The translations under genes and the position numbers were made by a program. A stretch of 64,000 nucleotides of DNA from a virus (lineage: Duplodnaviria; Heunggongvirae; Uroviricota; Caudoviricetes), in IMG/VR virus record IMGVR_UViG_3300021387_000308, positions 38,037 through 102,036 of that record; one strand, 5' to 3'. Of this stretch, positions 3,649-46,329 are shown one piece after another. The first letter of the stretch is position 1. Every line of letters starts with the position of its first letter. The notes beneath the pieces are model-generated. The model saw only the letters and a list, made by a program, of their open reading frames with translations. It was not told the origin of the DNA and searched no databases.

Positions 3649-3665
3649 GAGAAAGGATAAAACGA

Positions 3666-9600: not shown

Positions 9601-12353
9601 TTGGTGACAATAACCGTATTACATTTAGGTGTTATGACCCAGGTAATGATGTTGTTGTTCCTAAGAATTATTCTCTTAGTATTACACCATTCCAAGATAT
9701 GTATGTATCTGCGATGTTTGGTAATGGTGATCAACGACAAGTTAGGGCAAAAGCTGGAGAAACAGTTGTTCTGAATTTCAGTGTTAGTACAACTACTGAT
9801 ACTTAGGTAACTATTTATGGTGCTAATAGAATTGCGGCACTTAATGATTTATCCGCATGTTATATTGCTGCAAATAACTTCTCAATGGCTACAAAGCTGA
9901 GAAAACTTGTTCTTGGTAATACTACTCCCGGATATTCAAATTCAAGGTTAACTTCTTTAACTCTTGGTTCAAATAAATTGTTAGAAGAACTTGATTTGAG
10001 AAATTGTAATAACTTAACTGGTACGCTTAATTTGGCAGATTGTAGTAATCTTCTTAAATTGTACGCAGATGGTACTAGGATTAGTAGTGTTACTTTTGCC
10101 ACTAATGGTAAAGTATAGATTGCTCATCTTCCACCAACATTAAACACATTGGTAATGAGGAATCTTAATGACCTCCAAGATTTTTAGTGCTCAATGGATT
10201 ATCTTGAATAGTTAACTTTACAAGGAGGCACATTAAATAGTTATGAAGTTATTTCTGATGTAATTGATACTCTTAGTGTAGTATATTTATATGATTTAGA
10301 TTGGACGGTACCGAATTCTGATATTCTTAATCAATTATTAAATCTTGAATATTCTACATTGACTGGTAAAGTATATATTAATGGTGCTACAAGACTTAAG
10401 GAACTTGAAAGATACAATGCAAAATGGGCTGATCTTACTGTCACGTATAATCCTAACTATCTTGTAGAACAATATGCAGTTACTTATGTTAATGATGATG
10501 GTACTACTCTTGGAGTATATTATGTAGACCGTGGTGCCGTCCCGCCAAATCCAGTCGAAGATGGTACAATGGAAACTCCGACAAAAGCAAGTGATGCTCA
10601 ATATACTTACACATTTAGTGGTTGGGATGATATTGAATCTGTAGTACTTGCACCAAGAACTATTAAAGCACAATATTCAGAAACAATTAGAACATATACT
10701 GTAACTTGGTATTCTCGTGAAGGTGTTCCAATTCGTAGCACATAGGCTGAATATGGTTCTGAAGTAGTATACGATGGTAATATTCCAACTCGTACTGATG
10801 AAGAAGCTGCATATTGGTATAATATATTTACTGGATGGGACAAATCTACTGGATATATTACTGGTGATACTGATGTCTATGCTATTTGGGATAGAAAAGT
10901 ATTACCTGTTACTAATAATAACACATTGTTGACGAAAGACCTTAATGATATGAGTCCCGCAGAAATCTATGCTCTTGGTAATGCTTAGGCTATTGATTTG
11001 TCAAATATTACAAATCTGGAAGTGAAAGATTATAAAGATATTGTGGTTGGTAATGATTTTAATTTTAATAATGTAGAATCTGAAGTTCTTCTTGAGAATC
11101 GTTGGTTTGATGGTAAAACACATGTTGATACAAACATTAAATTGTTTAGTGAAGATTCGGAAGATTTTACTCTTGCTATTGATTTTGAATTTTATCAGCC
11201 GACATCAAATGCTACTCTCGTATCTTGCTTCGAAGAAGATGGTTCAGAAGGTTTCAGATTAAGATATAATCAAGGTTCTTCTATTCAGTGGGGTGATAAG
11301 AGTGTAACTGCTGGGCCAGACAGACAACGTAGTATTTGTGTAATCCGACACTTAAAAGGTTCTGATAAATTATATACTTATGTCTATAATACTAACAGTT
11401 ATCAATATGATGATGCTGTAATTAGAACAGAATTAACTAGGACAAGATCTACTACTACTGATTCGGTACTTAGTTTTGGTGCTATCAAATTCCCAGATGG
11501 TGGTTATGATTTCTACGCAAAAGGCTGGATTCACTGGTGTAAGATTTGGTATGCAGATTTAGGTAATGCCAATGCTTTGGAACTTGCACAATGGCCTCAT
11601 GAAACGTGGAGAGCAGAATACACTGGTTTGCAGAATTATAGATTGCCAGGTACTAGTAGATATGCTAGATTATCATTCTCATTAAATAACCTTCTTCTTA
11701 ATGAAATGGTTATGGCATATAGTAGTTCAAATGCTGGTGGTTGGCCCGCTAGTAAGATGAGAGTATGGGAGAATGATAGAATTTATAAAGCATTGCCAGT
11801 ATCTTATAGGGCAATTCTTAAACAAGTAAGAGTATGTTCTAGTGCTGGTAGTATGTCATCCGAAATAGTATATTCTGATGATTATATTTATGCTCCATCA
11901 TTAATAGAAGTTAGTGGCAATTCTTAGATTCCTTATGGAGATGAAATTCAGTCTAGTGGAAGTAACAAGATGATTCCTTGGTATACTAGTGATATTTCTA
12001 GGATTAAGTTCCTTGGTCAATTTGCACCAAGTAATCCAAATACTTTCTATAGTACTGAAGACCCGACAATTAATGATTCTAATAATGTTACTGCTGGAGA
12101 TATTTGGTATAGAAATTCATATGGTACTTACTATATGTTCATACCAAAATCCGAATATGATCGTCATGAGTATAAAGGTGATAATATTGTAGCTTCTAAT
12201 GGTGGCTTATGGTATCAGAGTGCTTATTGGTTTACTAGAACACCAGATGTATCATATAATGAATACTTTAGAGGTGTTGGTAACAGCGGTAATACCTATA
12301 CAATGCTTTGGCCTAATTCTGCTTATGGTGTCAATATTAATTTCTCAGTATAA
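3666..12353 (+). CDS. giant virion fibre/adhesin-like structural protein, 2895 codons, about 21 TAG(Gln) codons
   Basis: ATG 3666 with RBS gaaagga. Frame 3 contains no TAA/TGA from 3666 to TAA 12351-12353 (codon walk checked across the gaps). Track ORFs 3900..5711, 6006..6233, 6351..7166, 7197..8609, 9291..9560, 9564..9806, 9885..10118, 10359..10745, 10998..11927, 11970..12353 are all frame 3 and each ends at TAG. Internal duplicated motif [18 protein letters not shown] / [18 protein letters not shown]. Confidence 0.65.
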
Positions 12354-16453: not shown

Positions 16454-16535
16454 TATAAATTATTATTAGAGTCAACTAATAATAGCTGACTCTTTTATAC
16501 CTCTATAAATCACAACACAAGGAGGTGAAAATAAA

Positions 16536-19500
16536 ATGGCCGATATTTCGGTAATAAAGCTCCCAAATGGGTCTTCTTATAATCTTAAAGATTCTTAGGC
16601 GATTGCTTCTGCCACGTTTTCAGGACACGAATTAACATTAGTAAAGCGAGGTAGTGGAACTCAAGTAGTTGATTTGGGAGACTTTGACACTATAAATGTT
16701 ACTGATGCGAATATCGGTAACTTGGTTGTAACTGGATCTGCTAGATTTACCAATGGTATATTTGGAGATCTTATTGGTAATGCATAGACAGCCACAACAG
16801 CTTCAAGAGTTTCTGGTGTTGCTGGATCTACTAATGCTGCACGACATGTGTGGTTTTCGGATAGCGGAACCGAAACTGCTAGAAATTATGATGATGATTT
16901 TAAATACAATCCATCCACTAACACATTAACTGTTGCGAATGTTAGTGGTAATGCAACATCTGCAACAACAGCAACCACATGTACTGGAAACGCTGCCACA
17001 TCAACCAAAGCAAACATAACAACAACTGCAAATGCAGTAGCAATATACACAGATACTGCTGGAACATTCGGAACAAAAGCTACGGCAAATGGTGCAGCTT
17101 ATGCAACATCAACGAACGGCGCTTTAACATTTGGTACTCTTCCAGTTGCCCAAGGTGGTACTGGAAAAACAAGTGGAAAAGATGCCGCTAATTATTTTAT
17201 GAATTCACTCGATACTGGAAGTTCAACTCCAGTAGATGCCGACTATTATATTTCTCAATATGTTAGCGGTGGAACAACAACTACAACATATCATCGTAGA
17301 CCAATGTCGGCACTTTGGTCATATGTATCTGGTAAACTTTCACATAAAATTGACGGTGTTACATTTAATGGTACAGCTGACATTATACATTATGGAACAT
17401 GTTCAACTGCGGCTGGTACTGCTGAAAAGGCAGTTACTTGTGCAAGTTGGAATCTCGTAACTGGTGCGACAATTTGGGTTAAGTTCACAGTAACAAATAC
17501 TGCTGCTGTTGCAAACCTTAAACTTAATGTCAGCAGTACTGGAGCAAAAGCAATTAAATATCGTGGCGGGAATCTTCCAATGGTCGCAACTCTTACAGCA
17601 AATAGAATATATGGATTTGTTTACGATGGAACGAATTTCGAATTACTTGGCGATCTTGATACAGACTCTAACAGTGATACTTGGAGAGCAATTTAGGTAA
17701 ATGGTACTTAGATTATTGCATCTAATTCAAATACTGCATTAAATCTTAAAGCAGGAACAAATGTTAGTTTATCCAACAGTTCTGGGACTGTAACAATAGC
17801 GGCTACTGATACTACATATTCCGCTGGAGTTGGTCTTACTCTCTCATCTACTACGTTTAAAGCAAAATTAAAATCTGAAACTAATTCTACTCAAGAATCT
17901 GCAACCGTTGGTACAACGGCTAATCGACAATATGCAGTTCATCCAGATAAATCTGGTTATCTTTCTGTAAATGTTCCGTGGACTGATACTACTAAAGCTA
18001 CTGCCTTTAACAGTGTTAGAGAAATTAAACTAACTGGTGATGTTACTGGTTCTGCAAGTGCTGACGGTTCTAGTGGATGGAGTATTGCAACTACAGTAGC
18101 AGATTATTCTCATAATCATTATCCTAATAATTTAATACTTGGTAATAGTGCTACTACTAGTAGTTTAGATCCATTAACTAGTGCATTTATAGGAAGTGCA
18201 GCATCAAACAAAACATTTGGATTACCAGCAAATGCAATTGTTATAGAATATAGTACAGATGGTGGTTCTACATGGACTGATTATGGTGCTACTGATGCGC
18301 AAAAGAGAGATTTATTTGCAGAAACTAGAGGAACTAATTTTGTTCTTGGTAAGTCAACATCTGCTTCTACAAATAGCACTAATAATAGATTACGTGTAAC
18401 TATTGAGCCAACAGATAGATATGTTGCTGTACATGGCATTTATGTTTGGTTTAATACACAAGGAAGCACTGCATATATGGATCTTGAAAGGTCAACTATT
18501 GGAGCGAAAGATACATTTACAACAGTATTTACTGGATAGCAAATAGCTGGTTGGTCTGGTAATAATATAAGATATTTTAGTGCTAGTTCGTTTGGAGGTG
18601 GTTCTAGTCAAACATCAAATCATTATAAATATAGAATCACATTTTACCAAACAGCAATTAATTCAAATTATTCTGGAGCGATTGTTAATGATATTAGGTT
18701 CTTGGGATTAAGTGTTCATTCTTCTCCAAACAACATGGTTGCCAAAAACCACCTATATACATGGAATTCTAGTTTAGACGCAACATTCCCAGCACAACTT
18801 ACTGCAACCAAATTTATTGGTAATGTAACTGGTAATGTGAGTGGAACTTCTTCTGGCGTTTTAGACGCTGGTAATAATAGTTCAACAACCACATTCGCAT
18901 ATTCAAAATCTGGGCTGAATGCAAATTGGACTACAACGCCCTGGTTTGCGGCATGGAATGGTTACGAATTAAGAGCAATTAATTCTGTTAATATGAAGAC
19001 TACTCTTGGTTTAAATAATGTTGATAATACTGCTGATGCTAATAAATCGGTTGCTTCTGCTGCAAAATTTACTTCTGCTTAGTCAGTAACTCTCACTGGA
19101 GACACTACTGGTACTGCAAGTTCATAGGCTGGATGGAGTATAGCAACAACTACGAAATTATTTACTGGAACACTTGAGAGCGCTACTGCTCTTACTACTA
19201 GTCCAACTGCTGGTAAAATTCGTTATAGTTATAATGTTAACAATGGTACAGCTGGATTATTTAATCACTCAAGTAATGCGAACTCAATTATTACATTAAA
19301 TAGACATAATGGCAATTATGATTCACAAATTGGATTTTCATCTGATGGGAATATCTATTATAGATCTTTTAATGGAAGTGCGTTGAATAATACTACAGCA
19401 TGGAAGACTATGTTAGATTCTGGGAATTACACTTCCTATACAGTAACCAAAACTGGTTCAGGAGCTAGTGGGACTTGGGGAATAAGTATTACTGGTAATG

Positions 19501-20396
19501 CAGCGACGGCAACCACGGCTTCTTCGGCTAGTGCGCTAACTGGTCTTACCGCAAATCGTTTTGTGATAGGTAATGGTTCGTCTGCTGCGTATGCGTCTAG
19601 TAGCATGGGGTATTTCAATAATGTTGATGTGACCGTTGCATCTACTACCGTTAAACGGAACGGATTATATATCACTGGCGCTGGATATGGTAACACCGCT
19701 TCGTAGCTAGTATCATAGACATCGGGTGTTCTCAGTTGGGGAGACGGTGGCCCTCAAATTATATTCAGCACTGGCGATTATTCTAACAGTTCTAGCCAAT
19801 CTGGTGCTTTAATATTTACTGATCATGATTCTGCTGGTACTGGTACAAGCTTCCACTTCGTTGGTAACCAAAGCGATTGGAGTGTGAATTCAAAACGTTT
19901 TGTGGCGAAAACGAGCGTGTCTGTCGGAGTGAATGTTCCCAACACGAGTTATAACTTATATGTTGCGGGTACAGCGAATATTACAGGGGTGACTACTGGG
20001 GCAAGTTTCATATCTTCGTCTAAGATGACAATATCCAGTGGAACAATGACGGAAATTGCTACCAACCAACGAGGAGGCTTGTTTGCTGACGGTGTGGCAT
20101 TTTCAAATCCTGCGACTAGAAATGATCAAGGTTGGATACGTTGTCTCGGAACTAGTGAATCAGATACTGTACTTGAGATTGCAACTGGCGATGACAGCGG
20201 TTCAGGAGAACAAATCAAAGCTAGACAGTACAATACATCTAGCGCAGTTGTTCATGAAATGACATTGTTGGATACGTCTGGACATACTGCGGTTCCAGGA
20301 AATCTGACAATCGGGTCAGGCACTACTGGTGCGAGTGGCACTGTTAAGCTTGTTATGAACACAAGCACTAATTCATTAGATTTCGTTTTCTATTGA
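16536..20396 (+). CDS. giant fibre protein (1286 codons), N-terminus MADISVIKLPNGSSYNLKDS(Q)A; compositionally distinct GC-richer C-terminal module
   Basis: RBS aaggaggtg then ATG 16536. Frame 3 is continuous through track ORFs 16848..17696, 18702..19082, 19383..19706, 19884..20396 to TGA (gaps 16536-16848 and 17696-18702 walked codon by codon). Confidence 0.7.
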
Positions 20397-24675: not shown

Positions 24676-24736
24676 AATTTTAAGGAGAGCTAGATCACTC
24701 TCCTGTGTAAGAAAGGAAGGTGATTTATAATAAATT

Positions 24737-26677
24737 ATGATTGCAAAAAATCTTTTAGTAAATGGCAGTTCTAGATTTTTAGGAGATATGTACGGGAATT
24801 TAGTTGGTACAATAAATAGCCATACTGTTGCTAAAGATGTACCATCTGATGCCAAATTTACGGATACAACTTACTCTGTTGTGTCAGCTGGAACGTCCAC
24901 AACTGCTGGTGGATTAATGAGTTAGTCAGATAAAACCAAACTAAATGGTATTGCTACTGGAGCGGAAGTTAATTAGAATGCTTTCTCGAATATATATATT
25001 GATGCTGGCAATGCAACATTACTTCCAGCGGGATCAAAAACAGATACATTTAGATTAAAGACTGGTGGTAATATTGCTTTTGAAGTTAATACTAGCCAAA
25101 ATCAAGTAACAATTTCTGCTGTTGATACTATTCCAAGTGCCTATTGCAATACTGCTAGTGGAACTGCCGCAAAGGTTGCAAGTTGTACTGGATATGTACT
25201 TAGACAGCATAATTATATTCAAGTTATAATGGTTAACGCAAATTCATATAATGGTGCTATTACATTAAATATTAATGGTACTGGAGCAAAAACTATTAGG
25301 ATTAATGGTTCTGATTCTTCATCATCAAATAAAACATTACCAGCTGGGTCTTATATGGTTTATTATAACGGTACATAGTATTGTTTTAATACGTCACTTA
25401 GTATGCCTGGATATATAGATTATGCAAAATATATTAACATGACATCTACTACAAATAAGATGTTTATTGGCGGTACGACAAGTAGTTCAAATAGTTATAA
25501 ATCATTGTATTTTAATCCTAATGTACATATAGAAAATTATACATTAAGTATAAATGATAATGTTATATTAGATGGGGATACTTGTGATATATAGCTTATA
25601 TCAAATAGTCTAAGTAATACATATTCAAATTTAAGCCCAAATCACTTTTATATTAATACTCAATCATATAGTGCAAATTATGCTGATACTGACATACTTA
25701 TGAATGAAATACTTAATTCTGTAGAAGTTAATCGTGTTAATATCAGTAGTATGACTGCTAGTATTTATCTTAATTATACTAGCCCTAAAATTGAGTTAAA
25801 TGCTACTGATAATCCAAGCATTACTTTAGAAGTACGTAATACTGGTGTTCATGGATTATACTCATCTGGTTATAATAATGGTAGTTCATTTGTATCAGAT
25901 CCTCGTTGGCTGATTCAAAGAACTGCTGGTTATGATAATAATTTAATAGAGGGCAATACTTATATAACAGGTAATTTAACAACACAAACTTCTACTGCTA
26001 GTATAGCAAATTATATGCGAATTTCACATAATGGATTTGGCGGAACAAGTATAGATATGGAAGTTTCAGCAAGTGGCATACCTGGAATTTATTCAGCTAG
26101 ATATTGGAATGGTAGTTCCGTAGTATACAACAGTGGTATTTGGATGATTTATCGTGATACTGATGGGTTGGTTAGAACTAGAAGTTGTTCTGGTACTAAC
26201 TCAACACCGCTTGTAAATACTTCTACAACAGATGGGAAAATGCTATCTGGATGTCATTGTAATACTTCTACTCAATTAGCATTATATGGTCAATGGGGAA
26301 CTACTGGAACAACGTATGCATATAGATATGTTACGGTAACCACATCTGATCCACGACTTAAAGAAAACATTGAACCGACTAAATTTAATGCTCTTGAATT
26401 GATTAATAAAATTAATCTTTACTCATTTGACTGGAAAAATGATGATACCCCGCATTATGATGTTGGTTATATAGCTACAGAATTATATGAATTGGATCAT
26501 AATCTTGCCATCAAACCAGAAGATGAATCCGAAGGTTATTGGGGAGTTAATGATTATTACATGTCTGGTGTTCAAACAAAAGCAATCCAAGAATTGTCAG
26601 CAGAAAATAATGAACTCAGAAACAAGATCACATCACTTGAAGCTAGGATAGCGTCATTAGAAGCGCTTATAAAATAA
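24737..26677 (+). CDS. tail fibre protein (646 aa) with C-terminal S74-type intramolecular chaperone domain (...TTSDPRLKENIEPTKFNALELINKINLYSFDWK...); 4 TAG(Gln)
   Basis: ATG 24737. Frame 2 continuous through track ORFs 25403..25594 and 25700..26677 (both gaps walked). TAA then a terminator. Confidence 0.7.
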
Positions 26678-29617: not shown

Positions 29618-29947
29618 ATGGGTGCGAGTATACGTTAGAGCGGAAAGATTATAGCAAGTCTGTCCGATGCAAAACAAATCCGTGGTACTCTTATGGAAAC
29701 ATTCCTAAAGGGTGATCCTGGTGCATAGATACAATTACAGATTGCAAATGATTCTATCCTTCAATGGAAATATGATAATGAAACTGAATGGCATGATTTA
29801 TTTGATTTGTCAACTATAGATTATGAATTATTAACCAATCTCCCAACGCTCAATGGTAATGCGTTAGTTGGAGAATTGAATGATTTATTTATGTTACCAT
29901 CAGATGAGGTAACAGAATAGGAATTAATGAATTTATTAAATAATTAA
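29618..29947 (+). CDS. hypothetical late protein (109 aa), 3 TAG(Gln); paralog of the C-terminus of the 14345 gene
   Basis: ATG 29618 overlaps the upstream TAA. Frame 2 walk to TAA 29945-29947 checked. Shared motif ILQWKYDNETEWHDLFDL. Confidence 0.5.
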
Positions 29948-29963
29948 AGAAAGGAGGGAACAA

Positions 29964-31688
29964 ATGAAACCAAAATTTATTTCGTTGGAAAGATTTGCGA
30001 CATTTATAACGTGGTTAAAAGATGCTCTCCTCGGTAAAGTAGATAAAGAAGATGGTAAAGGATTGAGTGCCAACGATTTTACTGATTAGGATAAAAGTAA
30101 ATTAGATAATATCGAATCTGGTGCTCAAGTTAATTTAATTGAATCAATAAGTATTAATGGCGATGCGCAGACCATTAATCAGAAAAACGTGGATATTACT
30201 GTTCCTCTTGTTGATGACACTCTCACACATTCTGGGCAATCTGCTGATGCAAAAGTTACTGGTGATGCAATAGCTGATGTAGTAGCTGATGTAAATGCGG
30301 AACTTGCTACTAAACAGGACACTCTCTCGTTCGCAACTCCTACAGCCGAAGATGTTGGTAAAGCATTGATGCCTAAAACGGTAGAGAATGGTGTTGTTAC
30401 AGCTTGGGAATTTGGAGAAGCTGGATTGGTTGATGATGTCCAAATTAATGGCACGAGTATCGTGTAGGATAAGGTGGCGAATATACCACTGGCTAAGGAT
30501 GGTGTTGTTGGTGCAGTAAAAGTAGTTCCTATATTTGGTATAGCAACAGCTAACGATGGAACATTGTTAATAAACAATTCAACGTCAGATGTTGTAAAAT
30601 TAGGTGACAATAGTAATAGACCAATAACTCCAAATTATCAACATGAATCAACTTTCTATGGTCTTGCCAAAGTTGCGGGACACGATGAGAAGGATTCTAC
30701 ATTGCCTGTTGGTCAATACACCGATTCTGCAAAATCCGCCATTCAATCAATGTTAGGAATTGATACTGCTATCGCTGATGCTGTTGGTGATATAACCAGT
30801 TTTGAGTTTTAGGTTGTTGATGAGCTTCCAGCTACTGGGACTAAGGGTATTATTTATCTAATCCCACATCCACATGATGATAATGATGGATATGATGAAT
30901 ATATCTGGATTGATGATGGATTTGAGAAACTTGGGCATACTGATATTGATTTGAGTAATTATGCCACTATTAATTATGTTGATAGTGCATTGGATAATAA
31001 AATTGATGATGTTCAAATAGATGGGACAAGTATTGTAACTAATGGTGTAGCTGAAATACCTATTGCTAATATCAATACATTTGGAGTTCAAAAAGTAAAT
31101 GGGGCATATGGTATTGCGTCATCAGTTAATGGGACAACTTTATCCATAAATAGATCAACCACAGATAATGTAAAAAAGGGGAAAGAAACTTATAAACCTA
31201 TTGTTCCATCAAATCAACATGAAGCAGTATTCTACGGGTTAACAAAAGCTGCGGGAGTCGATATGGCTAATTCTGCTAATGAAATCGGTCAATACACGAA
31301 TGATGCAAAATTAGCAATCAAATCAATGCTTGGATTTGCTACATCTTCTGATATATCAGCGGCTATAGATAATCTTGTTAGTACTAGATATTATGTATGT
31401 TAGGATGGCGAATATGATCCATCAACTCACATTCCCACACTTGACGGTGAATTGGGAATTATTTATTTGGTACCGAAATATACTGAGCAATCAATAATCG
31501 GTTTTGCTACTATTGGAACTGCTATCGTTGTCACAGCAGATGATAATGCATATTATGAATATATCTTTACTGGAAGTAAGTTCGAGAAAATTGGTGATAC
31601 TAAAATTGATTTAAGTGATTATCTGATGGATTCTGATATAGCAACCGATGATTCTGTGAATACAATGTTGAATTAGGTATTTGTATAA
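29964..31688 (+). CDS. fibre protein (574 aa) with an internal duplicated module (...NGTSIV...PNYQHE..FYGL.K.AG...GQYT..AK.AI.SMLG...); 6 TAG(Gln)
   Basis: RBS aaaggaggg then ATG 29964. Track ORFs 30189..30467, 30474..30812, 30951..31403, 31452..31676 are all frame 3. TAA 31686-31688. Confidence 0.65.
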
Positions 31689-31701
31689 AAGGAGGAATAA
31701 C

Positions 31702-32418
31702 ATGAGTTATGTGAAAAATGTTTGGAGTGATGGAGATGTTATCACTGCAAATAAGATGAACAATATTGAAAATGGTATAGCTACGTTGCAAACCGACATG
31801 GGTAATATAACTGCTGAACCTATGATATCTATTACATGGGCAGAACTTAAGGCTAAACGTGATGACGGAAACCTTACGCCAGGTATGCAGTATCGCATTA
31901 CCGACTATGTTTGCACTACAACGCAGGAAGAAACTAGAGCAGTTAGTCATCCTTACGACATTATCGTAACAGCTGATAGTGCTAATACGCTTAACGAAAG
32001 CGCTATGGCTTGCTTGCATGATGGCGATGACTATTACACCGCCGAAGATCATTCCGCTAATCTTAAGGCTTGGGAACTTAAGTACTGTCTGGATAATGAT
32101 ACGACTAGATTTGCCTGGGCAGATGAGACAAACGGTAAGGGCGTTGTCTACTATCTTAAGGATGAGAAAGGTAACGAATGCCCTTACGATTTCAAACAGA
32201 TCCAGTTTAAGAGATACCTTATTACAGAATGCGAGAAAGTTCCTAGCTTGGTTAGCACCGCTGCTACGGCACTAATAGATTCTGCTATCATCACCGGGAT
32301 AGATGAAGATAACCCGGCTTGGTGCTATACGTTTACTAAATTTACAGGACCTGGCACAGTAGAAGATGCAACAGTATTAGGGTCACAGCATGAAGATAGC
32401 GACGGAGGTGGATATTAA
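31702..32418 (+). CDS. fibre module X (238 aa), no TAG; its core recurs fused inside the next gene
   Basis: RBS aaaaggagg then ATG 31702 (the track's 31681 start is an upstream TTG). TAA overlaps the next ATG (TAATGA). Confidence 0.6.
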   Translation: MSYVKNVWSDGDVITANKMNNIENGIATLQTDMGNITAEPMISITWAELKAKRDDGNLTPGMQYRITDYVCTTTQEETRAVSHPYDIIVTADSANTLNESAMACLHDGDDYYTAEDHSANLKAWELKYCLDNDTTRFAWADETNGKGVVYYLKDEKGNECPYDFKQIQFKRYLITECEKVPSLVSTAATALIDSAIITGIDEDNPAWCYTFTKFTGPGTVEDATVLGSQHEDSDGGGY

Positions 32419-34592
32419 TGAATGTACTTGGAAATAAAATAGCATATGCATCCTATCAAGATCAACAGATTCTTAATAATATAGTTTTTTTGGTAGTAAA
32501 CATTGGATGCTCTAATAACACCTTTGGTAATAACTGCTCTAAAAACACCTTTGGCGATGGCTGCTCTGAAAACACCTTTGGAAATGACTGCCGGAACAAC
32601 AACTTTGGCGATAACTGCAAGAACAACACCTTTGGTAATAGCTGCTACGACAACGTCTTTGACATCAACTGCTCTGAAAACACCTTTGGCAATGACTGCT
32701 ACAGCAACGCCTTTGTCAATAGCTGCTCTAAAAACACTTTTGACGATAATTGCACCGGCAACGCATTTGGCCGTGCATGCCTTGGCAACACCTTTGACAA
32801 TAGCTGCCAGGACAACACCTTTGGCGATAACTGCAAGAACAACACCTTTGGTAATAGCTGCGAAAATAACACCTTTGGCATTAGCTGCCAGAGCAATGCA
32901 TTTGGCGATAATTGCACCGGCAACGCATTTGGCGATAACTGCCAGAACAACACCTTTGGCAATGATTGCGCCGACAACACCTTTGGCGATAACTGCCAGA
33001 ACAACACCTTTGGCAATAGCTGTTATAGCAATACCTTTGATCATTGCTACGCTAATGTCTTAGAATTCAATTGCGGTTATCTTAAAGGCATGTATGACGA
33101 AACCGAAGGCACAACGGCACATTCATATCATGTGCTGCAATCAACTCATGGTACATCTGTTGAAGAATTATATGAACTCCCGACTAAGCCAGATACAGTT
33201 CTATCAGTCACTTACGTTGGAATGGACAGTAGCGGAAATATTACAACGTGGATCCTTGCCGAAGTTAACAATGGTGGTAGCGGTGGATCAGCTACACCAA
33301 TGGAATCCATTACATGGTCTGAACTTAAAGTAAAACGTGATGGTGGAACTCTTACACCTGGCATGTAGTATCGAATCACAGACTATGTCTGTACCACTAC
33401 GTAGGCAGAGTCTAGAGCTGTCAGCCATCCTTATGATATTATTGTGACAGCTGATAAAGTTAATGTGCTCAACGAAAATGCTAGGGCTTGTCTTCACGAT
33501 GGTGATGACTATTACACTGCTGAGGGACATTCTGCTAATTTAGCTGTTTGGGAGCTTAAGTACTGCCTGGATAACGACGAAACTAGGTTTGGATGGGCAG
33601 ACACCGAAAACGGTAAGGGCGTTGTTTACTATCTTAAGGATGAACATAATAACGAGTGTCCTTACGATTTTAAGCAGATTCAGTTTAAACGGTATAGGAT
33701 TACTGAATGCGAGAAAGTTCCTAGCATTGTTGGAGCCTATACGGCACCAATAGAATCTACTGTTATCACCGGAATAGATGAAAATAACCCAGTTTGGGGC
33801 TACACATTTTGTTATTATGGAAATAATCTAGACGATGCAACGGTATTAGATGCACAGCATTATTTAGATGACTGCGGAGTATTTGGAAATAAAATAGCGC
33901 CGGCGTACAATGGCGATCTAATGGTTCTTAATAATATAGTTTTTATAACTATCACCGACGGCTGCTACGGTAACACCTTTGACGAAGGGTGCGGTTACAA
34001 TACCTTTAGCATTACATGTTGTAACAACGCATTTGGCTATAACTGTCATAGCAACATCTTTAATGCTGGTTGCACCAGAAACGCATTCAACAATTCTTGT
34101 GTCGGGAATATTTTTAGTACTAGGTTCAAAGAAAATACTTTTGGCAATGAATGCCATGATAACATCTTTGGCAATGAATGCCATGATAACATCTTTGGTA
34201 ATGACTGCCATGATAACATCTTTGGTAATGACTGCTCTAACAACATATTCGGTAATAACAGTTATAGTAACACATTTAGTAATAACTGCTATAATAACAC
34301 CTTGGGCAATTCCTGCCCGTTCAATTCCTTTGGTAGCAATTGCCATAATAATATTTTAGAAAACACATGCGGTTATCTTAAAGGTACATATGATGAAACC
34401 AACGGCACATCAACACATTCGTGTCATGCATTAGCCGGAACTAGAGGACTGCCTGATCGATTATATGAGCTTCCGACTAACCTAGATTCAAATAAATCAG
34501 TCACTTACGTTGGGATGAAAAGCAACGGAAATATTATAACGTGGGTGCCGGCCGATGTTCATGATGATCCAGATGAGGGTGGGCTACGGTGA
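32418..34592 (+). CDS. beta-helix-type fibre protein (724 aa): 9-residue repeat array - tail - copy of module X - second repeat array - tail; 2 TAG(Gln)
   Basis: Track ORFs 32418..33368 and 33444..34592 are both frame 3 and joined through TAG 33366 and TAG 33402. Both TAGs align to CAG codons (31888, 31924) in the upstream paralog. Confidence 0.7.
32508..33057 (+). repeat. about 20 tandem 27-nt coding repeats (peptide C-x-x-N-T-F-G-x-x)
   Basis: Periodic NTFGDNC / NTFGNSC units in the translated ORF. The same units on the antisense strand create spurious ORFs. Confidence 0.7.
33963..34371 (+). repeat. second array of about 15 27-nt coding repeats (C-H-D-N-I-F-G-N-E type)
   Basis: Same 9-residue periodicity in the second half of the gene. 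Confidence 0.65.
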
Positions 34593-34738: not shown

Positions 34739-34972
34739 ATGGCAATTACGACATTAGACCAACTCAAGACATCTCTTTAGGCAACTAAAGTTTATATAGA
34801 TAATACTATTAATAGTGCAACTTAGAGAGGTACCTATACTCTCACTGCCACTGATAAAGAAGAAATTGCTGGAATGGTTTTACCAATATTACCATCAGTT
34901 GATGGTTCATATATATTAACAGTAACTATTAGTAATGGCAATCCTACATATGCGTGGCAATTACAAAGTTGA
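34739..34972 (+). CDS. hypothetical small late protein (77 aa), 2 TAG(Gln)
   Basis: RBS gaggtg then ATG 34739. Frame 2 walk to TGA 34970-34972 checked. Confidence 0.45.
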
Positions 34973-34996
34973 TATTAATTTAAGGAAAAATTTATT

Positions 34997-35191: not shown

Positions 35192-35212
35192 TGTAAATTA
35201 AATAATTTTTTT

Positions 35213-35245
35213 GGCTACTGTCTTATGATAGTAGCTTTTATTATT
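35213..35245 (+). terminator. terminator-like hairpin (GGCTACT-10 nt loop-AGTAGCT then tttattatt)
   Basis: 7-bp stem, T-rich tail. Confidence 0.35.
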
Positions 35246-35250
35246 GTGAG

Positions 35251-36933
35251 GTGAAAATTATGTCCGTAACAATAAATAATTTGGCTAAAAAAGCATGGAA
35301 GGTTTTTCTAAAAGAAGGGATGACAAAACAAGGAGCAGCTGGAATGCTGGGTAATATTTTTGCAGAAAGTGGAATGAATGCTTCTATTGTTGAATACCTA
35401 TGTCTTCAACGGCTTAGAGAAAATGGCAAAAATTATACTCAAGAATCATATAGATAGGCTGTTGACAATGGTAAAATTACGAGAGCAGAATTTTTAAATC
35501 CATTGCCAGGCAAATAGTATGGTTGGGGATGGACTTAGTTAACAACTCCTGTTCCACGAAAATCAGAGTTCTATGATAGAACAGTTGCCGTTGGTAAATC
35601 AATAGCTGATGAAGATGAGCAAATTAATTACACTATTTATGAACTTAAAACAAGATATAAAAGTGTGTGGAAAGTACTTACAACCACAACTTCTATTAAA
35701 ACTGCTTCTGATACTGTATTGAGAGATTTTGAATCACCAAGTAATTGGTAGCAATATAGTTCATTGAGAATGCAGTATTCTTAGGAGTATTATGATTATT
35801 TTAATAATCAAGCTACAGGCACGAAAGGAAGTGATGTTGTGTCAGTAACTAGAGAACAAGCAATTAATGCGATGATATCTACCGCAGAAGCTGAGATCGG
35901 ATATCTTGAGAAAGCTAGTAATTCTTAGCTTGATTCTAAGACGGCTAATGCTGGTAGTAATAACTATACTAAATATTGGAGAGATGTATATCCCGCATAT
36001 CAAGCCCAAGCGTGGTGCGCTTGTTTCGTATCTTGGGTGTTTATGAAAACATTTGGATAGGAAACTGCCAAAAAGCTTCTTAAACACTGGCCTTATGTTT
36101 ACTGCCCAACTATGGCATCATTGTTTACGCTTAATGCTAATCCGAAGAAAGGTGATATTGTAATCTTTTATCGCAATGGCACATTTGCTCATACTGGGAT
36201 TGTTGTTGGTGTAAATGGAGATTAGTTTACTACTATTGAGGGTAATACCTCGAATGGTTCTACTATTATTGCAAATGGTGGCGGAGTATGCAAAAAGAGT
36301 TATTACAACTCAAATCTGCCAGGTACTAAATTCTGTACTCCAGATTACTCAATAGTAACCAAGATTCTCTCTGGTAATACTACTATCAATACTACTACAA
36401 CCACTACTTCTACTACCACTACTACAACTACCTCTTCTACTTTGAATGAAACTCCAAAGTGGAAAGGTAAATTAAATCGTAATGCAAAAGTTCGTACTTG
36501 GGCTGGATCAGAAAATAAAGAAGTATCGTTTTCTCCACTCAAGAAAAATATCCAAGTAGAAGTGTGTGATACTGTTAAAGATACAAAGAATCGTAATTGG
36601 TATTATATCAAAGTAAATGATAAATTTGGTTTTATATATAGTAAATATATAGATAAAGTTGTTGCTAATACAACTAAACCAACTAAAACTACAACCGCCA
36701 AAACCACTACTACGCAATATCGTGTTCAAGCTGGAGCATACTCGGTACTTGCCAATGCAAATGCTACTGTAAAGACTCTGACCAAATCTGGGTATGATGC
36801 TGTGGTAGTCAAGAGCGGAAATAGTTATATTGCATAGCTTGGAATGTTTGGTTCACTAGCTAATGCAAATGCACTTAGAGATAAAGTTAAATCTGACGGT
36901 TTCGATGCCGTTGTTATTGCTATAAAATCATGA
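35251..36933 (+). CDS. multidomain peptidoglycan hydrolase (560 aa): N-terminal lysozyme-like domain (AAGMLGNIFAESG), CHAP/NlpC-P60 domain (AWCACFVSW ... HTGIVVGV), SH3b-like domain, C-terminal SPOR domain; about 9 TAG(Gln)
   Basis: GTG 35251 or ATG 35260. Frame 1 continuous through track ORFs 35251..35457 and 36442..36837 to TGA 36931-36933. Cys and His catalytic motifs of CHAP recognised; SPOR motif YRVQAGAYSVLANANATVKTL. Confidence 0.65.
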
Positions 36934-36950
36934 TGAGGAGATAAAAAGGA

Positions 36951-38102
36951 ATGAACGTTTATTTAGATAATGCTGCAACTACACAGATGTTGCCAGAAGT
37001 AATTGATGCTATGAAGTCATATATGATTGAATACTATGGAAATCCATCTGGATTATATACGATTGGATTTAAAACAAAAAATATGCTTGATGATTGTCGC
37101 AAAACTATTGCACAGACTATCAATGTATAGCCTAACCAGATTTATTTCACATCTGGTGGAACTGAGGGAGATAATTGGATTATTAAAGGTGTTGCTGAAG
37201 CGCTGGAAACAAGAGGTCATCATATTATTACTTCTTCTATTGAACACAAAGCAATTCTTAAATCTTGTGAATGGCTTGAAGATCATGGATTTGAAGTAAC
37301 ATATATTGACCCAGATGATCGCGGTTTTATCCATGTATCTGATATTGAAAGTGCCATCCGTGAAGATACTATTCTTGTTAGCATTATGTATGCTAATAAT
37401 GAAGTTGGTACTATACAGCCAATTGAAGAGATTGCTAAAGTATGTAAAAATTATCATGTGTTGTTCCATACAGATGCAGTTCAAGCATATGGTCATGTTC
37501 CAATCAACGCTCGGAAATTTGGTATTGATTTCATGACAACAAGTAGTCACAAATTCCATGGCCCAGACGGTGTAGGATTTGTCTATATTCGTAACCCAAA
37601 AACTATTTCTCAATTTATCCACGGTGGACAACAAGAATCTGGATTCCGCGCTGGAACAGAAAATATGTTGGGTATTGTTGGAATGGCAAAAGCTGCGGAG
37701 ATTGCACATAAAAATCTACAAACTAATATTAATTATATGACATCACTCAGAGATGTGTTTATTGATGAGTGTTTAAATAATATACCAAAGTGTCACCTGA
37801 ACGGTTCTCTCATAAGTAGACTGTGTAATAATATCAGTTTAACATTTGATGGTGTTCCCGGCGAATCTTTGGTAACAATGTTGGATATGATGGGAATAAG
37901 TTGTTCTACTGGAAGTGCTTGTAATTCTTCCGATGAAAAACCATCACATGTTTTAACTGCCATGGGTAGGACTGATGAGTATGCCCATAATACACTCAGA
38001 TTTACTCTTTCTGAGTTGACAACGGCAGATGAGATAGATTATGTTCTTCAATGTTTAAAACGCACTATTTCTGATATTAGGAGGTTATATGGGCAAAAGT
38101 AA
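36951..38102 (+). CDS. class V aminotransferase / cysteine desulfurase (NifS/IscS-like, 383 aa) with 1 TAG(Gln) at 37128
   Basis: RBS aaaaagga then ATG 36951. Frame 3 walk through TAG 37128-37130 to track ORF 37386..38102 checked. PLP-lysine motif SSHKFHGP, active-site Cys motif GSACNS, FTSGGTE motif. Confidence 0.75.
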
Positions 38103-42646: not shown

Positions 42647-45600
42647 TTAACTGCAATGACTAAATCCACAATCTTTGCATGTACTACAGCCACCCTCGAA
42701 TATAAGTTCTCCACCGCATTCTGGACAAATCGCTTTTGTTTTTTGTTTAGGAACTTTTACAACATCATTATTTACAGTTGCTTCTACAACTTTAGTAGGA
42801 GTGATCACATACTCATCGTCTTCATCAAAGATATCATCTTGGATTTCACGATACATATCAATTAATGCATTTGCAATCGCTACTGGGCAACTATTACCTT
42901 TTGATGTATCATGCTTGGTCGCTGTTCTTACAGTATAAGACGGACAAGCTGGAACGCTCATAAGCTGGTCAGCAATAGAATTAATATCAACTCCACCTCT
43001 TGCAGATAATGAAATCAATCTTGAGATTGCTGTAAGGTTACAAAGGCATCCTCCGCTACTACCCTTATTTAAGAAGCATTCTAATAAATCACCAGTATCT
43101 GGATCAAAAAATGCAGAACAATGTAGAGAACCGCAGCCAGTCACTAAATGTCTTTCTTTACCAACGGAATTATTATCAACCTTAATAATCATTCCTCTTT
43201 CTAATTTCTGAGGAATATGTTTTACCTCTTCTTCTGAGTGATCGATTGTTAAAATTCCTGCACGTTTACATCCATCACGGAAGATTGTTACACCTTTAAG
43301 GCCAGCTTCCCACGCTTTCATATAAAGGTCTTCTACTTCTTCAATAGTAAAGCTATTTGGTACATTAACCGTTGAAGAAATACTAGCATCAATATGTTTC
43401 TGCCAGATTGCTTGCATTTTAATGCGTTCTTTATAATCAAGTGTTTGTGCTGTCACAAAGAAATCGGGTAATTCAGAATCGTCATCAATATTGTTTTCAT
43501 CCATATATTTTTTTACAATCGGAGTATAAACTTTATAATACTCATCATGTCCATGAAGCGACTCTGTTTTTCTTGTATAGTAATTTGCAAAAATTGGTTC
43601 GATACCACCAGACACTCCAAGCATCGTAGAAAGTGTTCCAGTTGGGGCAATAGTAAGTAGCTGCGAGTTAGCAAGTCCACAAGAAACATCTGTATCACCA
43701 ACATGCTCACTAAAGAATGCAGATTGAGCAACTGCCTCTGGATGATACTTAGGATAATGACCAATTACTTTTGCAAGTTCAGCAGATGTCTTAATAGCTT
43801 GATATGCCATCTTCTGACCAATCATGTCGCACAGATGGATAGATTCATCACTACCATAACGAACACCCATTTTAATCAACATATCTGCCAAGCCAAAGAT
43901 TCCTAATCCACACTGTCTCCAATCTCTAACAGATTCTCTCTGTTCTTTGAGAGGATGAAGTGGAATACCCTCATCAAGAACTTCATTCAATGCTTTAATG
44001 GCAATATCTACTGTATTTGAAAAATCTTCAAAATCAAAAAGCTTATCTTTAGTTACAAATTCTGAAAGATTGATGGAGCCGAGCAAACACGACCCACCGG
44101 GCGGAAGCGGTTCTTCTGCACAATTATGAACAACAAAACCATTTACAACTCCCCAATGTCTTTCAGGTTCTGTAAAATCATATACTTTTATCTTACCATT
44201 TGGTACTACACTAGTAACTTGCATAGCACGTTTTTTAATCATATTACACAGCTGCTCTCTCTTATACTGCTGATAAAAGCCAATGCAAGCCATAAATTTA
44301 ATAATTTCTTGATATCTTCCAATATTGATATCATAACTTTCGCGGATTTCATAAGTCCCATTTTCAAATTCAATCTTGTGTGGTTTATTTGTTGTAATAT
44401 ATGCATTGCAGATATCAAAATCTTCTTTTAATGTAGAAACTAATTTTTCCGCAAAAGCCTTACATGTGGTTTTATATGAAATTCTTCCACCTTTGTGTGT
44501 ATCATTCTTTTTTATAACACATCCATTTGCGGAATAACAGCCACATAAAAAACTTGATTTTTCTAATCTAGTCCATGTATCGTATGTAGAAGGAAATTCT
44601 CTGTCTGGCAAAATATTAGGAGAAAACCCTAACTTAACTAATTCTGGTTGATAATTTGCTAAATAAATTGCACGTTCTGATTTTTTCGTAAATTCTTCAT
44701 CGGAAAACAAATCCCAGATATCGGTATCTTTCTCTCCAATATTAACTTCGATTCCATCATGATATTTACTATTTAATCTAGTAGTTTGCCCATCACCCTG
44801 AATAAATCCAAGCTTAATAAAATGATTATCAAGATTATGGTTTGAACGAGTTAATGGCATTATATATTTACCAGTTAAATTCTCAGCACGACATTCTTCT
44901 CCATCTAAAGTCATAAATCTATGATCTGGAGTACAAATTACTTCTGTGTTATAGAATTTTACTTTAACAGTATCTTTTTCTCCGTTGCACCATACTTTAC
45001 TTTTTACAACGTTCCCATCAACATTAATAATATAAGGTTCAGTACCGTCAAGCTCTTCAAACGTTTTATATCCATCAACTGTAAGAAGTTTCGAATCTCC
45101 AGAAAAACATGGGTTTACTCCACCATATTTAAATTCAGGATCGCAACTAAGAAGATTCCAATTTTCTATTCTATCCCAGAAAAGCATTCCAGGTTCGGCC
45201 CAATCCCAATTAGACTCACAGATTTTATGAAATAATTCATAAGCATCAACTGTTTTAGTAATCGTTTCTCCAGTTTCTACTCTTGTAAAACTAAGTTCAA
45301 ATGGTTCACGATTTTTTACAGCTGCCATAAATCTATCAGTAATACGAATACTAATATTAGCTTTTGTAACCCTATCAGTATTTTGCTTAATTCCAATAAA
45401 TTCTTCAATGTCTGGATGGTCAACGGGGATTGATATCATCAAAGCTCCTCGTCTTCCCGCTTGCCCAATCAAACCAGTAACCATAGAATACAAATCCATA
45501 AAACTTACTGATCCAGATGTTTCTTTAGCGGCATTATGGACTATAGCGCCTCTGGGTGCAAGTTTACCAATATCAATGCCACATCCACCACCATAAGAAT

Positions 45601-45898
45601 AAGTACGTGCCAATTTCTTAGCACAATCAAAGATTTCTTCGATGGAATCACCAGGAGCAGATATCACATAACAATTTGATAAACTAATTTTTCTACCATC
45701 GTTATTAGTTCCACGATTGGCGAGGATTCTTCCACCAAATAAAAACTTTTTATCAATAATCTGCTTTTTTAATATTTCATTTTTATTGGTAATTCTATCA
45801 AGCCATTCATCAAATGTTTCGCCATTATATTGATACTTTCTTTCCCATATGTCAGTTGCTAATTTATTATCTTTACCAAGCCAATCTTCTACTCTCAT
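42647..45898 (-). CDS. nrdJ: ribonucleotide reductase, class II-like (adenosylcobalamin type), intein-containing precursor (1083 aa; about 754 aa after splicing), C-terminal zinc ribbon
   Basis: Extein junction reconstructs the active-site motif GGVNP-C-AEEPLPPGGSC. C-terminal CPECGG ... CSTCKDCG. Standard code, TAA stop. Confidence 0.7.
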   Translation of the reverse strand: MRVEDWLGKDNKLATDIWERKYQYNGETFDEWLDRITNKNEILKKQIIDKKFLFGGRILANRGTNNDGRKISLSNCYVISAPGDSIEEIFDCAKKLARTYSYGGGCGIDIGKLAPRGAIVHNAAKETSGSVSFMDLYSMVTGLIGQAGRRGALMISIPVDHPDIEEFIGIKQNTDRVTKANISIRITDRFMAAVKNREPFELSFTRVETGETITKTVDAYELFHKICESNWDWAEPGMLFWDRIENWNLLSCDPEFKYGGVNPCFSGDSKLLTVDGYKTFEELDGTEPYIINVDGNVVKSKVWCNGEKDTVKVKFYNTEVICTPDHRFMTLDGEECRAENLTGKYIMPLTRSNHNLDNHFIKLGFIQGDGQTTRLNSKYHDGIEVNIGEKDTDIWDLFSDEEFTKKSERAIYLANYQPELVKLGFSPNILPDREFPSTYDTWTRLEKSSFLCGCYSANGCVIKKNDTHKGGRISYKTTCKAFAEKLVSTLKEDFDICNAYITTNKPHKIEFENGTYEIRESYDINIGRYQEIIKFMACIGFYQQYKREQLCNMIKKRAMQVTSVVPNGKIKVYDFTEPERHWGVVNGFVVHNCAEEPLPPGGSCLLGSINLSEFVTKDKLFDFEDFSNTVDIAIKALNEVLDEGIPLHPLKEQRESVRDWRQCGLGIFGLADMLIKMGVRYGSDESIHLCDMIGQKMAYQAIKTSAELAKVIGHYPKYHPEAVAQSAFFSEHVGDTDVSCGLANSQLLTIAPTGTLSTMLGVSGGIEPIFANYYTRKTESLHGHDEYYKVYTPIVKKYMDENNIDDDSELPDFFVTAQTLDYKERIKMQAIWQKHIDASISSTVNVPNSFTIEEVEDLYMKAWEAGLKGVTIFRDGCKRAGILTIDHSEEEVKHIPQKLERGMIIKVDNNSVGKERHLVTGCGSLHCSAFFDPDTGDLLECFLNKGSSGGCLCNLTAISRLISLSARGGVDINSIADQLMSVPACPSYTVRTATKHDTSKGNSCPVAIANALIDMYREIQDDIFDEDDEYVITPTKVVEATVNNDVVKVPKQKTKAICPECGGELIFEGGCSTCKDCGFSHCS
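44123..45109 (-). mobile_element. intein (329 aa) with LAGLIDADG homing endonuclease, inserted at the RNR active-site cysteine
   Basis: Starts CFSGDSKLLTVDGY (block A), has TPDHRF (block B), LGFIQGDG and FLCGCYSANG (LAGLIDADG motifs), ends ...GFVVHN followed by +1 Cys. Confidence 0.8.
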
Positions 45899-46329
45899 AC
45901 ATATTCTCTCCCATACATTCTCACAAGATCTTCTTCAATAGCCATAGCCTTAGCTTCATGTTTGGTACAGAAACCATTAGCAATCATTGCAGCATCAGAG
46001 AGATCTTTTGCAATCCTATGATAAAGTCTAGCAAGCTTCAGATGGTTTTTGAGTTCAAGCTTTTCAGAACAAACATCAATACCAACCTTTTCATCAAACT
46101 CATCTTTCTCATCACAATAAGCATTGGCTGTGATATTATTTTCTCTCATCAGAAAATCAAATATAGTATACTTACGACTCGCGTTTCTAATCAATCGTTT
46201 ATATTTGTCCTTAATACCAGCCTTGAGATCATTCTCAATACCTTTTTCAACCATCTTACCCTGAACCAGACGAGCTTCCGGGATAACCTTAAATTCTTTA
46301 TTTCTAACATTAACTTTCTTCATAATCAA
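45895..46329 (-). CDS. hypothetical early protein (144 aa)
   Basis: Track ORF, start overlaps the next gene's stop. Confidence 0.45.
   Translation of the reverse strand: MIMKKVNVRNKEFKVIPEARLVQGKMVEKGIENDLKAGIKDKYKRLIRNASRKYTIFDFLMRENNITANAYCDEKDEFDEKVGIDVCSEKLELKNHLKLARLYHRIAKDLSDAAMIANGFCTKHEAKAMAIEEDLVRMYGREYV

Follow-up and report, generated by a model that had tools for sequence, protein, structure and literature searches.

Fibres built from more than one polypeptide are well described in tailed phages: in the long tail fibre of T4 (gp34-gp37) and in the tailspike adaptors of CBA120 and G7C, several chains are joined end to end noncovalently and the distal parts are exchangeable. The locus described here, at positions 31702-34592 of a 64,000-nucleotide (nt) stretch of a Caudoviricetes genome (IMG/VR record IMGVR_UViG_3300021387_000308, positions 38,037 to 102,036; hereafter the window), would resemble those fibres in its multi-polypeptide build, with a proposed contact between the products of its two genes, A and B, but no sequence or fold relationship to them was found. 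Its building block is a module consisting of a domain that we call X, an array of nine-residue repeats and a C-terminal tail domain, T, and this module is present twice. We consider it likely that 31702-34592 is a distal tail-fibre locus with a duplicated module, lying among late genes in which TAG encodes glutamine, and that the split between its two genes is functional.

The sole match among 50,697 deposited phage genomes was the tail fiber protein gp53 of Clostridium phage phiCT453A (AJA42543.1; 22% identity, tblastn E=2e-7); no nucleotide match turned up when 20 kb of the window were compared with deposited phages by megablast. In phiCT453A, too, the gene with X and the array is a fibre gene, which immediately follows the baseplate J / XkdU-like genes and precedes the lysis genes, but gp53 has a single module with X and the array fused, an N-terminal Phage_tail_fib (PF12571) anchor and the standard genetic code. 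With regard to the code, the closest described phages are the gut phages that read TAG as glutamine (code 15), in which recoding affects structural and lysis genes and the early genes are standard (Borges et al., 10.1101/2021.08.26.457843; Peters et al. 2022, PMC9523058). The window phage is like them in the confinement of TAG to structural and lysis genes, with the standard code in early and replication genes, and in its low G+C content (34%); no suppressor tRNA was seen within the window, which covers 64 kb of a 118-kb contig.

The nearest proteins belong to an unnamed metagenomic family (for example, P0003, P0009 and P0121) that has the same three parts in the same order, with 45-57% identity over the module; nearly all of its members are single polypeptides, whereas module 1 of the window spans two genes. 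The family is large: the module gave 2241 matches in large protein collections, and gene A gave 3835 cluster representatives at E<=1e-3. Its members usually carry anchor-X-array-T within a single protein of 400-750 amino acids (aa), and the anchor region of A is replaced in homologues by other anchors, Mtd_N or Phage_tail_fib. Tandem multiplication of the module appears to be a habit of the family, because many representatives carry 2-5 X-array units per chain, up to 2482 aa. Proteins P0121-P0128 (1,400-2,500 aa) each contain three to five X-array modules on a single chain, an architecture that is apparently undescribed.

Searches of A and B against Pfam, PHROGs and NCBIfam returned nothing meaningful, no PDB sequence was matched by a 68-sequence profile, and BFVD yielded only unnamed or uncharacterised proteins. 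No member of the family has been characterised, nor do Pfam, PHROGs or NCBIfam name one. The processes at work (modular fibres, tandem duplication, overlapping coupled genes, code 15) are all known ones. No papers on the fission of tail-fibre genes came up in a literature search. The locus represents an ordinary kind of fibre evolution in an undescribed protein family, and it is the family and the X fold that are uncharacterised. The family is missing from the curated libraries searched, and no solved structure is related to the X fold; solving a structure or studying binding would annotate thousands of metagenomic phage proteins.

Genes A and B and the reading of TAG

The locus comprises two + strand genes, A and B, rather than three pieces, because the phage reads the TAG codons at 33366 and 33402 as glutamine, as in its other late genes. 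The features are listed below, where J1 and J2 denote the X/array junctions of the two modules, and L002, L004, L015, L016, L046 and L057 denote close relatives, defined by the same T1-linker-X2 joint as that of the window.

31690-31695 (+): Shine–Dalgarno sequence AGGAGG of gene A, by direct reading, 6 nt before ATG 31702
31702-32418 (+): gene A, 238 aa, N-terminal anchor and X1; closes with TAA at 32416-32418 and lacks in-frame TAG; same sequence as database protein P0063
31702-31812 (+): N-terminal anchor of A, aa 1-37, outside the duplicated unit (the module alignment starts at A aa 38); predicted helix at 16-32
31813-32346 (+): X1 domain, at aa 38-215 of A and paralogous to X2
32404-32420 (+): split junction J1; Shine–Dalgarno GGAGGTG at 32404-32410 within Gly codons, TAA at 32416-32418, ATG at 32418-32420 (TAATG), in-frame TGA after
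32418-34592 (+): gene B, 724 aa with TAG read as Gln, array1-T1-linker-X2-array2-T2; the two TAGs are its only in-frame stops; identical to database protein P0001
32496-33062 (+): array 1, ~21 nine-residue repeats (F-G-x-x-C-x-x-N-T), 27-nt period
33063-33260 (+): T1 tail domain, B aa ~216-281; 57% identity to T2, 83% to T1 of L002
33261-33290 (+): Gly/Ser linker NNGGSGGS(A), the T1-X2 duplication joint; same joint in L002, L004/L015 and L057
33291-33824 (+): X2 domain, B aa 292-469; nearer to X2 of L002 and L004 (85-90% identity) than to any X1
33366-33368 (+): in-frame TAG as Gln, B aa 317; CAG in X1 of the window, X2 of L002, X1 of L004 and X1 of L016, TAG in X2 of L004
33402-33404 (+): second in-frame TAG as Gln, B aa 329; same codon comparison as for TAG 33366
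33870-33893 (+): fused junction J2 (…DDCGVFGNKI…), in frame, without Shine–Dalgarno or ATG; orthologous site split in L002 and L057
33963-34367 (+): array 2, ~15 nine-residue repeats (C-x-x-N-x-F-G-x-x), some of which read C-H-D-N-I-F-G-N-[DE]
34368-34592 (+): T2 tail domain and stop TGA

In the late genes of this phage, TAG specifies glutamine. Long + strand open reading frames (ORFs) across 1-38102 appear only when TAG is taken as sense, and this applies to all + strand late genes of the window; ORF 3651-12353 (+), for example, encodes 2901 aa with 21 in-frame TAGs, and ORF 16509-20396 (+) contains nine. In contrast to these otherwise intact late genes, the − strand genes beyond 38559 (38559-64000; early genes, including integrase, dUTPase and ribonucleotide reductase) have essentially no in-frame TAG. 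The amino acid was assigned by alignment at two sites, both in the fibre locus. The X2 sequence ...TLTPGM(TAG)YRITDYVCTTT(TAG)AESRAV... corresponds to ...TPGM(CAG)YRITDYVCTTT(CAG)EETRAV... in the gene A paralogue, both positions are CAG in each X1 examined, and 47/67 homologues have glutamine at both columns. The predicted peptides of B that cover the two residues are TLTPGMQYR and ITDYVCTTTQAESR.

The window is identical to part of a 118,309-bp ENA metagenome contig (ERZ28612940 scaffold_261), in which products of 238 aa (P0063) and 724 aa (P0001) had already been called. Judging by the record names, the source samples may be sheep rumen and SAMN02144230. Gene B is open, apart from the TAGs, over 724 codons at 34% G+C. 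The initial annotation of this DNA had correctly placed the first gene at 31702-32418, but it then divided the remainder into an array-plus-tail ORF (32418-33365) and a separate fused ORF (33366-34592), which the glutamine reading of TAG 33366 joins into B. Its description of a separate gene in copy 1 and a single fused ORF in copy 2 holds in so far as X1 and array 1 are split while X2 and array 2 are in frame; copy 2 is, however, also fused to the copy-1 tail in the 724-aa ORF. The standard code (table 11) therefore mis-annotates the locus, listing 32418-33368 and 33444-34592 as separate ORFs, with copy 2 beginning only at GTG 33444. Long − strand ORFs over the arrays (32415-33044 and 33918-34346) and alternative + frames were rejected as by-products of the 27-nt repeat, and a promoter and terminator scan gave nothing convincing between A and B or within B. 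A weaker suggestion is that the two TAGs inside X2 may gate B, with the suppressor level setting whether a 316-aa one-module product or the 724-aa two-module product is made.

Tandem duplication of the module

The unit of X domain, 27-nt (9-aa) array and tail T is present twice and is collinear. A self dot plot, the check that had been set beforehand for the proposed tandem duplication, bore out the proposal: diagonals of 10-mers were found at offsets of 1478 (X core, 31855-32238), 1455 (array start) and ~1293-1296 (tail), superimposed on the 27-nt ladder that the arrays produce. Joined conceptually, A aa 38-238 and B aa 1-291 make up module 1, which can be aligned over its full length with module 2 (B aa 292-724), and BLASTP of A against B gave 75% identity over 200 aa (E=5e-105). 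The units start at ~31813 and ~33291. The boundary first placed at 33365/33366 is not a unit boundary, since 33366 is the in-frame TAG that aligns with a copy-1 CAG (Gln), and unit 2 starts 25 codons further upstream, at ATPMESITW. The X motifs (Q)YRITDY and PYDFK.IQFKR, and a 9-residue C-x-x-N-x-F-G-x-x array directly after X, are present in both modules; X, array and T lie in one polypeptide in module 2, and in module 1 X1 is in A and array1-T1 in B.

The two X domains are old paralogues, both of them constrained: they are 77% identical at the nucleotide level, with a synonymous divergence (dS) of about 1.5 and a ratio of nonsynonymous to synonymous rates (dN/dS) of 0.08; for X2, downstream of the split, dN/dS is 0.11. 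The X2 domains of the lineage are mutually 85-90% identical, compared with 78-84% between X2s and X1s. From the T1-linker-X2 joint common to the window, L002, L004/L015 and L057, it appears that one old duplication event founded the two-module layout of the lineage.

The X/array junctions

At the copy-1 boundary, which reads ...GAC GGA GGT GGA TAT TAA TGA / ATG AAT GTA CTT GGA AAT..., GGAGGTG lies 7 nt before the ATG, and the TAA of A overlaps ATG 32418 (TAATG), so that the stop-start overlap reported earlier is real. The copy-2 boundary (...GAT GAC TGC GGA GTA TTT GGA AAT...) is in frame. The 11-nt indel said to separate the two is present as a local difference (TATTAATGAAT), although the net difference between the DATV and LNNIV anchors is 14 nt, made up of this 11 and an in-frame 3.

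The same arrangement of a Shine–Dalgarno sequence in the upstream gene and a start overlapping the stop was found at J1 and at four junctions in relatives. At all five split junctions (J1 of the window, J1 and J2 of L002, J1 of L016 and J2 of L046/L057), the ATG overlaps the stop (TAATG or ATGA) and is preceded, at a distance of 7-10 nt, by GGAGGT(G), with ATGAATG in common, whereas both fused junctions lack the Shine–Dalgarno sequence and the ATG. J1 is split, moreover, in independently assembled genomes that are 85% identical. We infer that the split junctions are working, translationally coupled gene boundaries and not damage, because the Shine–Dalgarno sequence and ATG are kept at five junctions, J1 is split in diverged genomes, B is open over 724 codons and X2 is constrained. 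A Gly-rich linker can evidently double as a ribosome-binding site, which could be useful in the engineering of receptor-binding proteins.

Close relatives and the direction of change

The close relatives differ in where the same two-module chain is cut (a slash marks a gene boundary):

Window: N-X1 / array1-T1-X2-array2-T2; J1 split, J2 fused
L002 (85% nucleotide identity to the window): X1 / array1-T1-X2 / array2-T2; J1 split, J2 split
L057 (with L004 and L046): N-X1-array1-T1-X2 / array2-T2; J1 fused, J2 split
L016: only J1 covered; J1 split

From these comparisons, fission and fusion at the X/array boundary is a real, population-level polymorphism rather than an artefact. The view of the locus as a snapshot of gene fission or fusion is sound to the extent that split/fused, split/split and fused/split forms coexist among relatives; it is not an event in progress, because X1 and X2 are old paralogues and the split junction is a conserved element rather than a fresh lesion. 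The three closely related phages amount to a natural experiment, in which different cut points in the same duplicated fibre indicate where the fibre tolerates division. Array cassettes are also replaced by recombination between conserved flanks: the identity of L057 to the window is 95% as far as 32253, no alignment is possible over the end of X1 and array 1, and identity then resumes at 83%.

The initial annotation had proposed a comparison with related phages to find the ancestral arrangement, and this provides part of the answer. Family-wide, the fused state is ancestral, as in 10/10 IMG/VR loci, all of them single-module, and in almost all of the top 120 hits; apart, possibly, from P0320 (217 aa, without the X motif), the array-first proteins among the top 120 matches to array1-T1 all belong to this lineage. 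For copy 2 there is evidence in both directions. The Shine–Dalgarno-ATGAATG signature common to J1 and J2, and the relic AATGGAATG (W-N) that the fused J1 of L057 keeps where split junctions have ATGAATG (M-N), suggest that the split junction arose once and was then duplicated or copied, and that some fused junctions are re-fusions. Re-fusion is also favoured by the finding that deletion of 11 nt from a J1-type junction gives the join bases of the window J2 (GGA followed by GTAYTTGGAAAT), although the sequence upstream of the join has diverged. On the other hand, the window J2 (LDDCGVFGNKIAP) is loosely like the outgroup fused junction of P0003 (LDHGCFVLDNKINP), in favour of an ancestrally fused copy 2. 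The window J2 could thus be either a re-fusion or the retained ancestral state.

Arrays, T domains and predicted structures

Tandem Repeats Finder reported the 27-nt period at 32517-33039 (18.7 copies) and at 34140-34317. The array1+T1 and array2+T2 parts are 52% identical, and the framework residues C/N/F/G of the repeat are kept. Array 2 contains, at 34152-34232 (+), three to four consecutive C-H-D-N-I-F-G-N-[DE] repeats that place a Cys-His pair every nine residues; this ladder is not found in array 1 and could, from its sequence, bind metal.

In an AlphaFold2 model of module 2, with a mean predicted local distance difference test (pLDDT) score of 81, X is compact and beta-rich (pLDDT above 90), the junction is a lower-confidence linker, the next 20 residues (GNKI...LNNIVF) are confident (pLDDT 88-89), and regular period-9 strands follow. 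Array 2 is modelled as a beta-solenoid, a fold to which the homologous array 1 would also belong. The model of gene A has a mean pLDDT of 86, with its Gly-rich last 8 residues disordered. The likeness to single-chain beta-solenoids (the Ca-dependent antifreeze protein 3p4g, pentapeptide-repeat proteins and pectate-lyase-like phage tailspikes) is a match of fold class only, at 5-10% identity. The repeat of the arrays differs from theirs in having nine residues and a conserved Cys, and there was no Pfam pentapeptide or beta-helix match (PF00805 and relatives included; no Pfam match at E<=0.1). Neither A nor B has a Peptidase_S74 C-terminal chaperone, a domain that is present in the neighbouring fibre gene 24734-26677.

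Proposed function and alternative explanations

The locus, which sits between the Peptidase_S74 tail-fibre gene and the endolysin, would be the distal, receptor-binding tail-fibre locus of a phage of roughly 118 kb. Its building block would be X, a beta-solenoid of 9-residue Cys/Asn/Phe/Gly repeats and a C-terminal T, mostly carried in one polypeptide behind a phage-specific anchor, from which one ancient duplication would have produced N-X1-array1-T1-(GlySer linker)-X2-array2-T2. This chain would be cut at the variable X-to-array linker, in the window after X1 only, leaving A as anchor plus X1 and B as array1-T1-X2-array2-T2. B would be translated through its two TAG(Gln) codons, coupled to A at J1 by the Gly-codon Shine–Dalgarno sequence GGAGGTG 7 nt before the stop-overlapping ATG, and would attach noncovalently to the X1 of A through a conserved segment at its N-terminus (GNKI...LNNIVF). 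With its two array/T parts diverged, the fibre would have two different binding surfaces or specificities. The split or fused state would switch between close relatives by small junction indels congruent to 2 mod 3, and also where recombination replaces the array cassette lying between the conserved X and T flanks.

Several observations weigh against this account. The tail-fibre role is deduced from position, the 22%-identity match and the fold class, with no sequence match in Pfam, PHROG, NCBIfam or PDB, and the binding of A to B is likewise something that we infer. ARAGORN found no suppressor tRNA(CUA), and indeed no tRNA gene, within the 64-kb window, the only part of the 118-kb contig that was searched. 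In addition, dN/dS for array1+T1 between the window and L002 is 0.84 at a dS of 0.09, which fits diversifying selection on a receptor-binding part but fits relaxed constraint as well.

If TAG 33366 and TAG 33402 were real stops, as in the standard code, the locus would fall into the three pieces suggested by the table 11 list, and the lack of a suppressor tRNA in the window would be accounted for. This parse is extremely improbable, however, as both TAGs stand at conserved Gln codons (CAG in paralogue and orthologue, Gln in 47/67 homologues), X2 is in frame and conserved across them, each late gene of the window needs TAG as sense, and the source record itself calls the 724-aa product. Still less weight, in fact almost none, can be given to an assembly artefact in which a collapsed or chimeric repeat made the duplication or the 11-nt indel. 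Although the region is rich in repeats and comes from a short-read metagenome assembly, the copies are only 77% identical at the nucleotide level, and the two-module layout with its T1-X2 joint occurs in independent assemblies (ENA ERZ286129xx, JGI 3300031994, JGI 3300002641 and AUXO01).

The split itself might be read in two other ways. A disabling frameshift would leave A as a truncated remnant and B unexpressed or unattached, and decaying; the rarity of the split form in the family (among top hits, only this lineage) and the dN/dS of array1+T1 would agree with this. We nevertheless regard decay as quite improbable, given the consensus Shine–Dalgarno sequence and stop-overlapping ATG at 5/5 split and 0/2 fused junctions, the retention of the split in diverged genomes, the intact 724 codons of B, the strong purifying selection on X2 in B (dN/dS 0.08-0.11) and the preserved framework residues of the repeats. 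Programmed −1 frameshifting, by contrast, would join A and B into a fused N-X1-array1... product, perhaps beside A alone. Relative to A, B lies in the −1 frame, J1 of L002 contains GGGGGGT, and an upstream Shine–Dalgarno-like element can stimulate frameshifting, as in dnaX. But there is no X XXY YYZ slippery heptamer at the window junction, conservation across the five junctions is limited to the Shine–Dalgarno sequence and ATGA, upstream of its ATG the frame of B stays open for just 8 codons (TAG included), and each junction has a proper ATG at the correct Shine–Dalgarno spacing. Frameshifting was rejected for its lack of a slippery site and of conservation, and is in our view very improbable.

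Within the preferred account, of a fibre cut at a functional, coupled junction, X may act as a 'socket' capturing the next array by its N-terminal GNKI...LNNIVF segment; we offer this tentatively, as a rather unlikely possibility. If it were true, modules could be chained either covalently (fused, up to five per protein) or noncovalently (N-X / array-T-X / array-T). A socket would also explain why the cuts in the lineage always fall between X and array and never between T and X, and would provide rumen and gut phages with a general plug-and-socket route by which to lengthen or re-tip a fibre by one gene.

Neighbouring genes

Just upstream of A lies another fibre-like gene (29940-31688, +; 574 aa, 5 TAGs, phrog_24103), which has its own internal tandem duplication of about 200 aa; the motif DDVQI[ND]GTSIV...PNYQHE..FYGL.K.AG...QYT..AK.AI.SMLG...GIIYL.P...EK.G.T.IDLS.Y is present in it twice. 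Right after B is a small conserved ORF (34740-34973, +; 77 aa, MAITTLDQLKTSL(TAG)ATKVY...), and L002 has in-frame TAGs at the same places (88% nucleotide identity). The endolysin (35206-36933, +) combines Phage_lysozyme2, CHAP and SPOR domains with a poly-Thr linker, and its nine in-frame TAGs are the heaviest load per length near the fibre locus, in agreement with the reported bias of lysis genes to recoded stops. Directly after it, a cysteine desulfurase-like gene (36945-38102, +; Aminotran_5, 383 aa, one in-frame TAG), an unusual auxiliary gene, ends the late block. On the standard-code strand, the large subunit of ribonucleotide reductase (42647-45934, −; 1083-1096 aa) has a weak match to an intein-splicing domain in the annotation of the source record.

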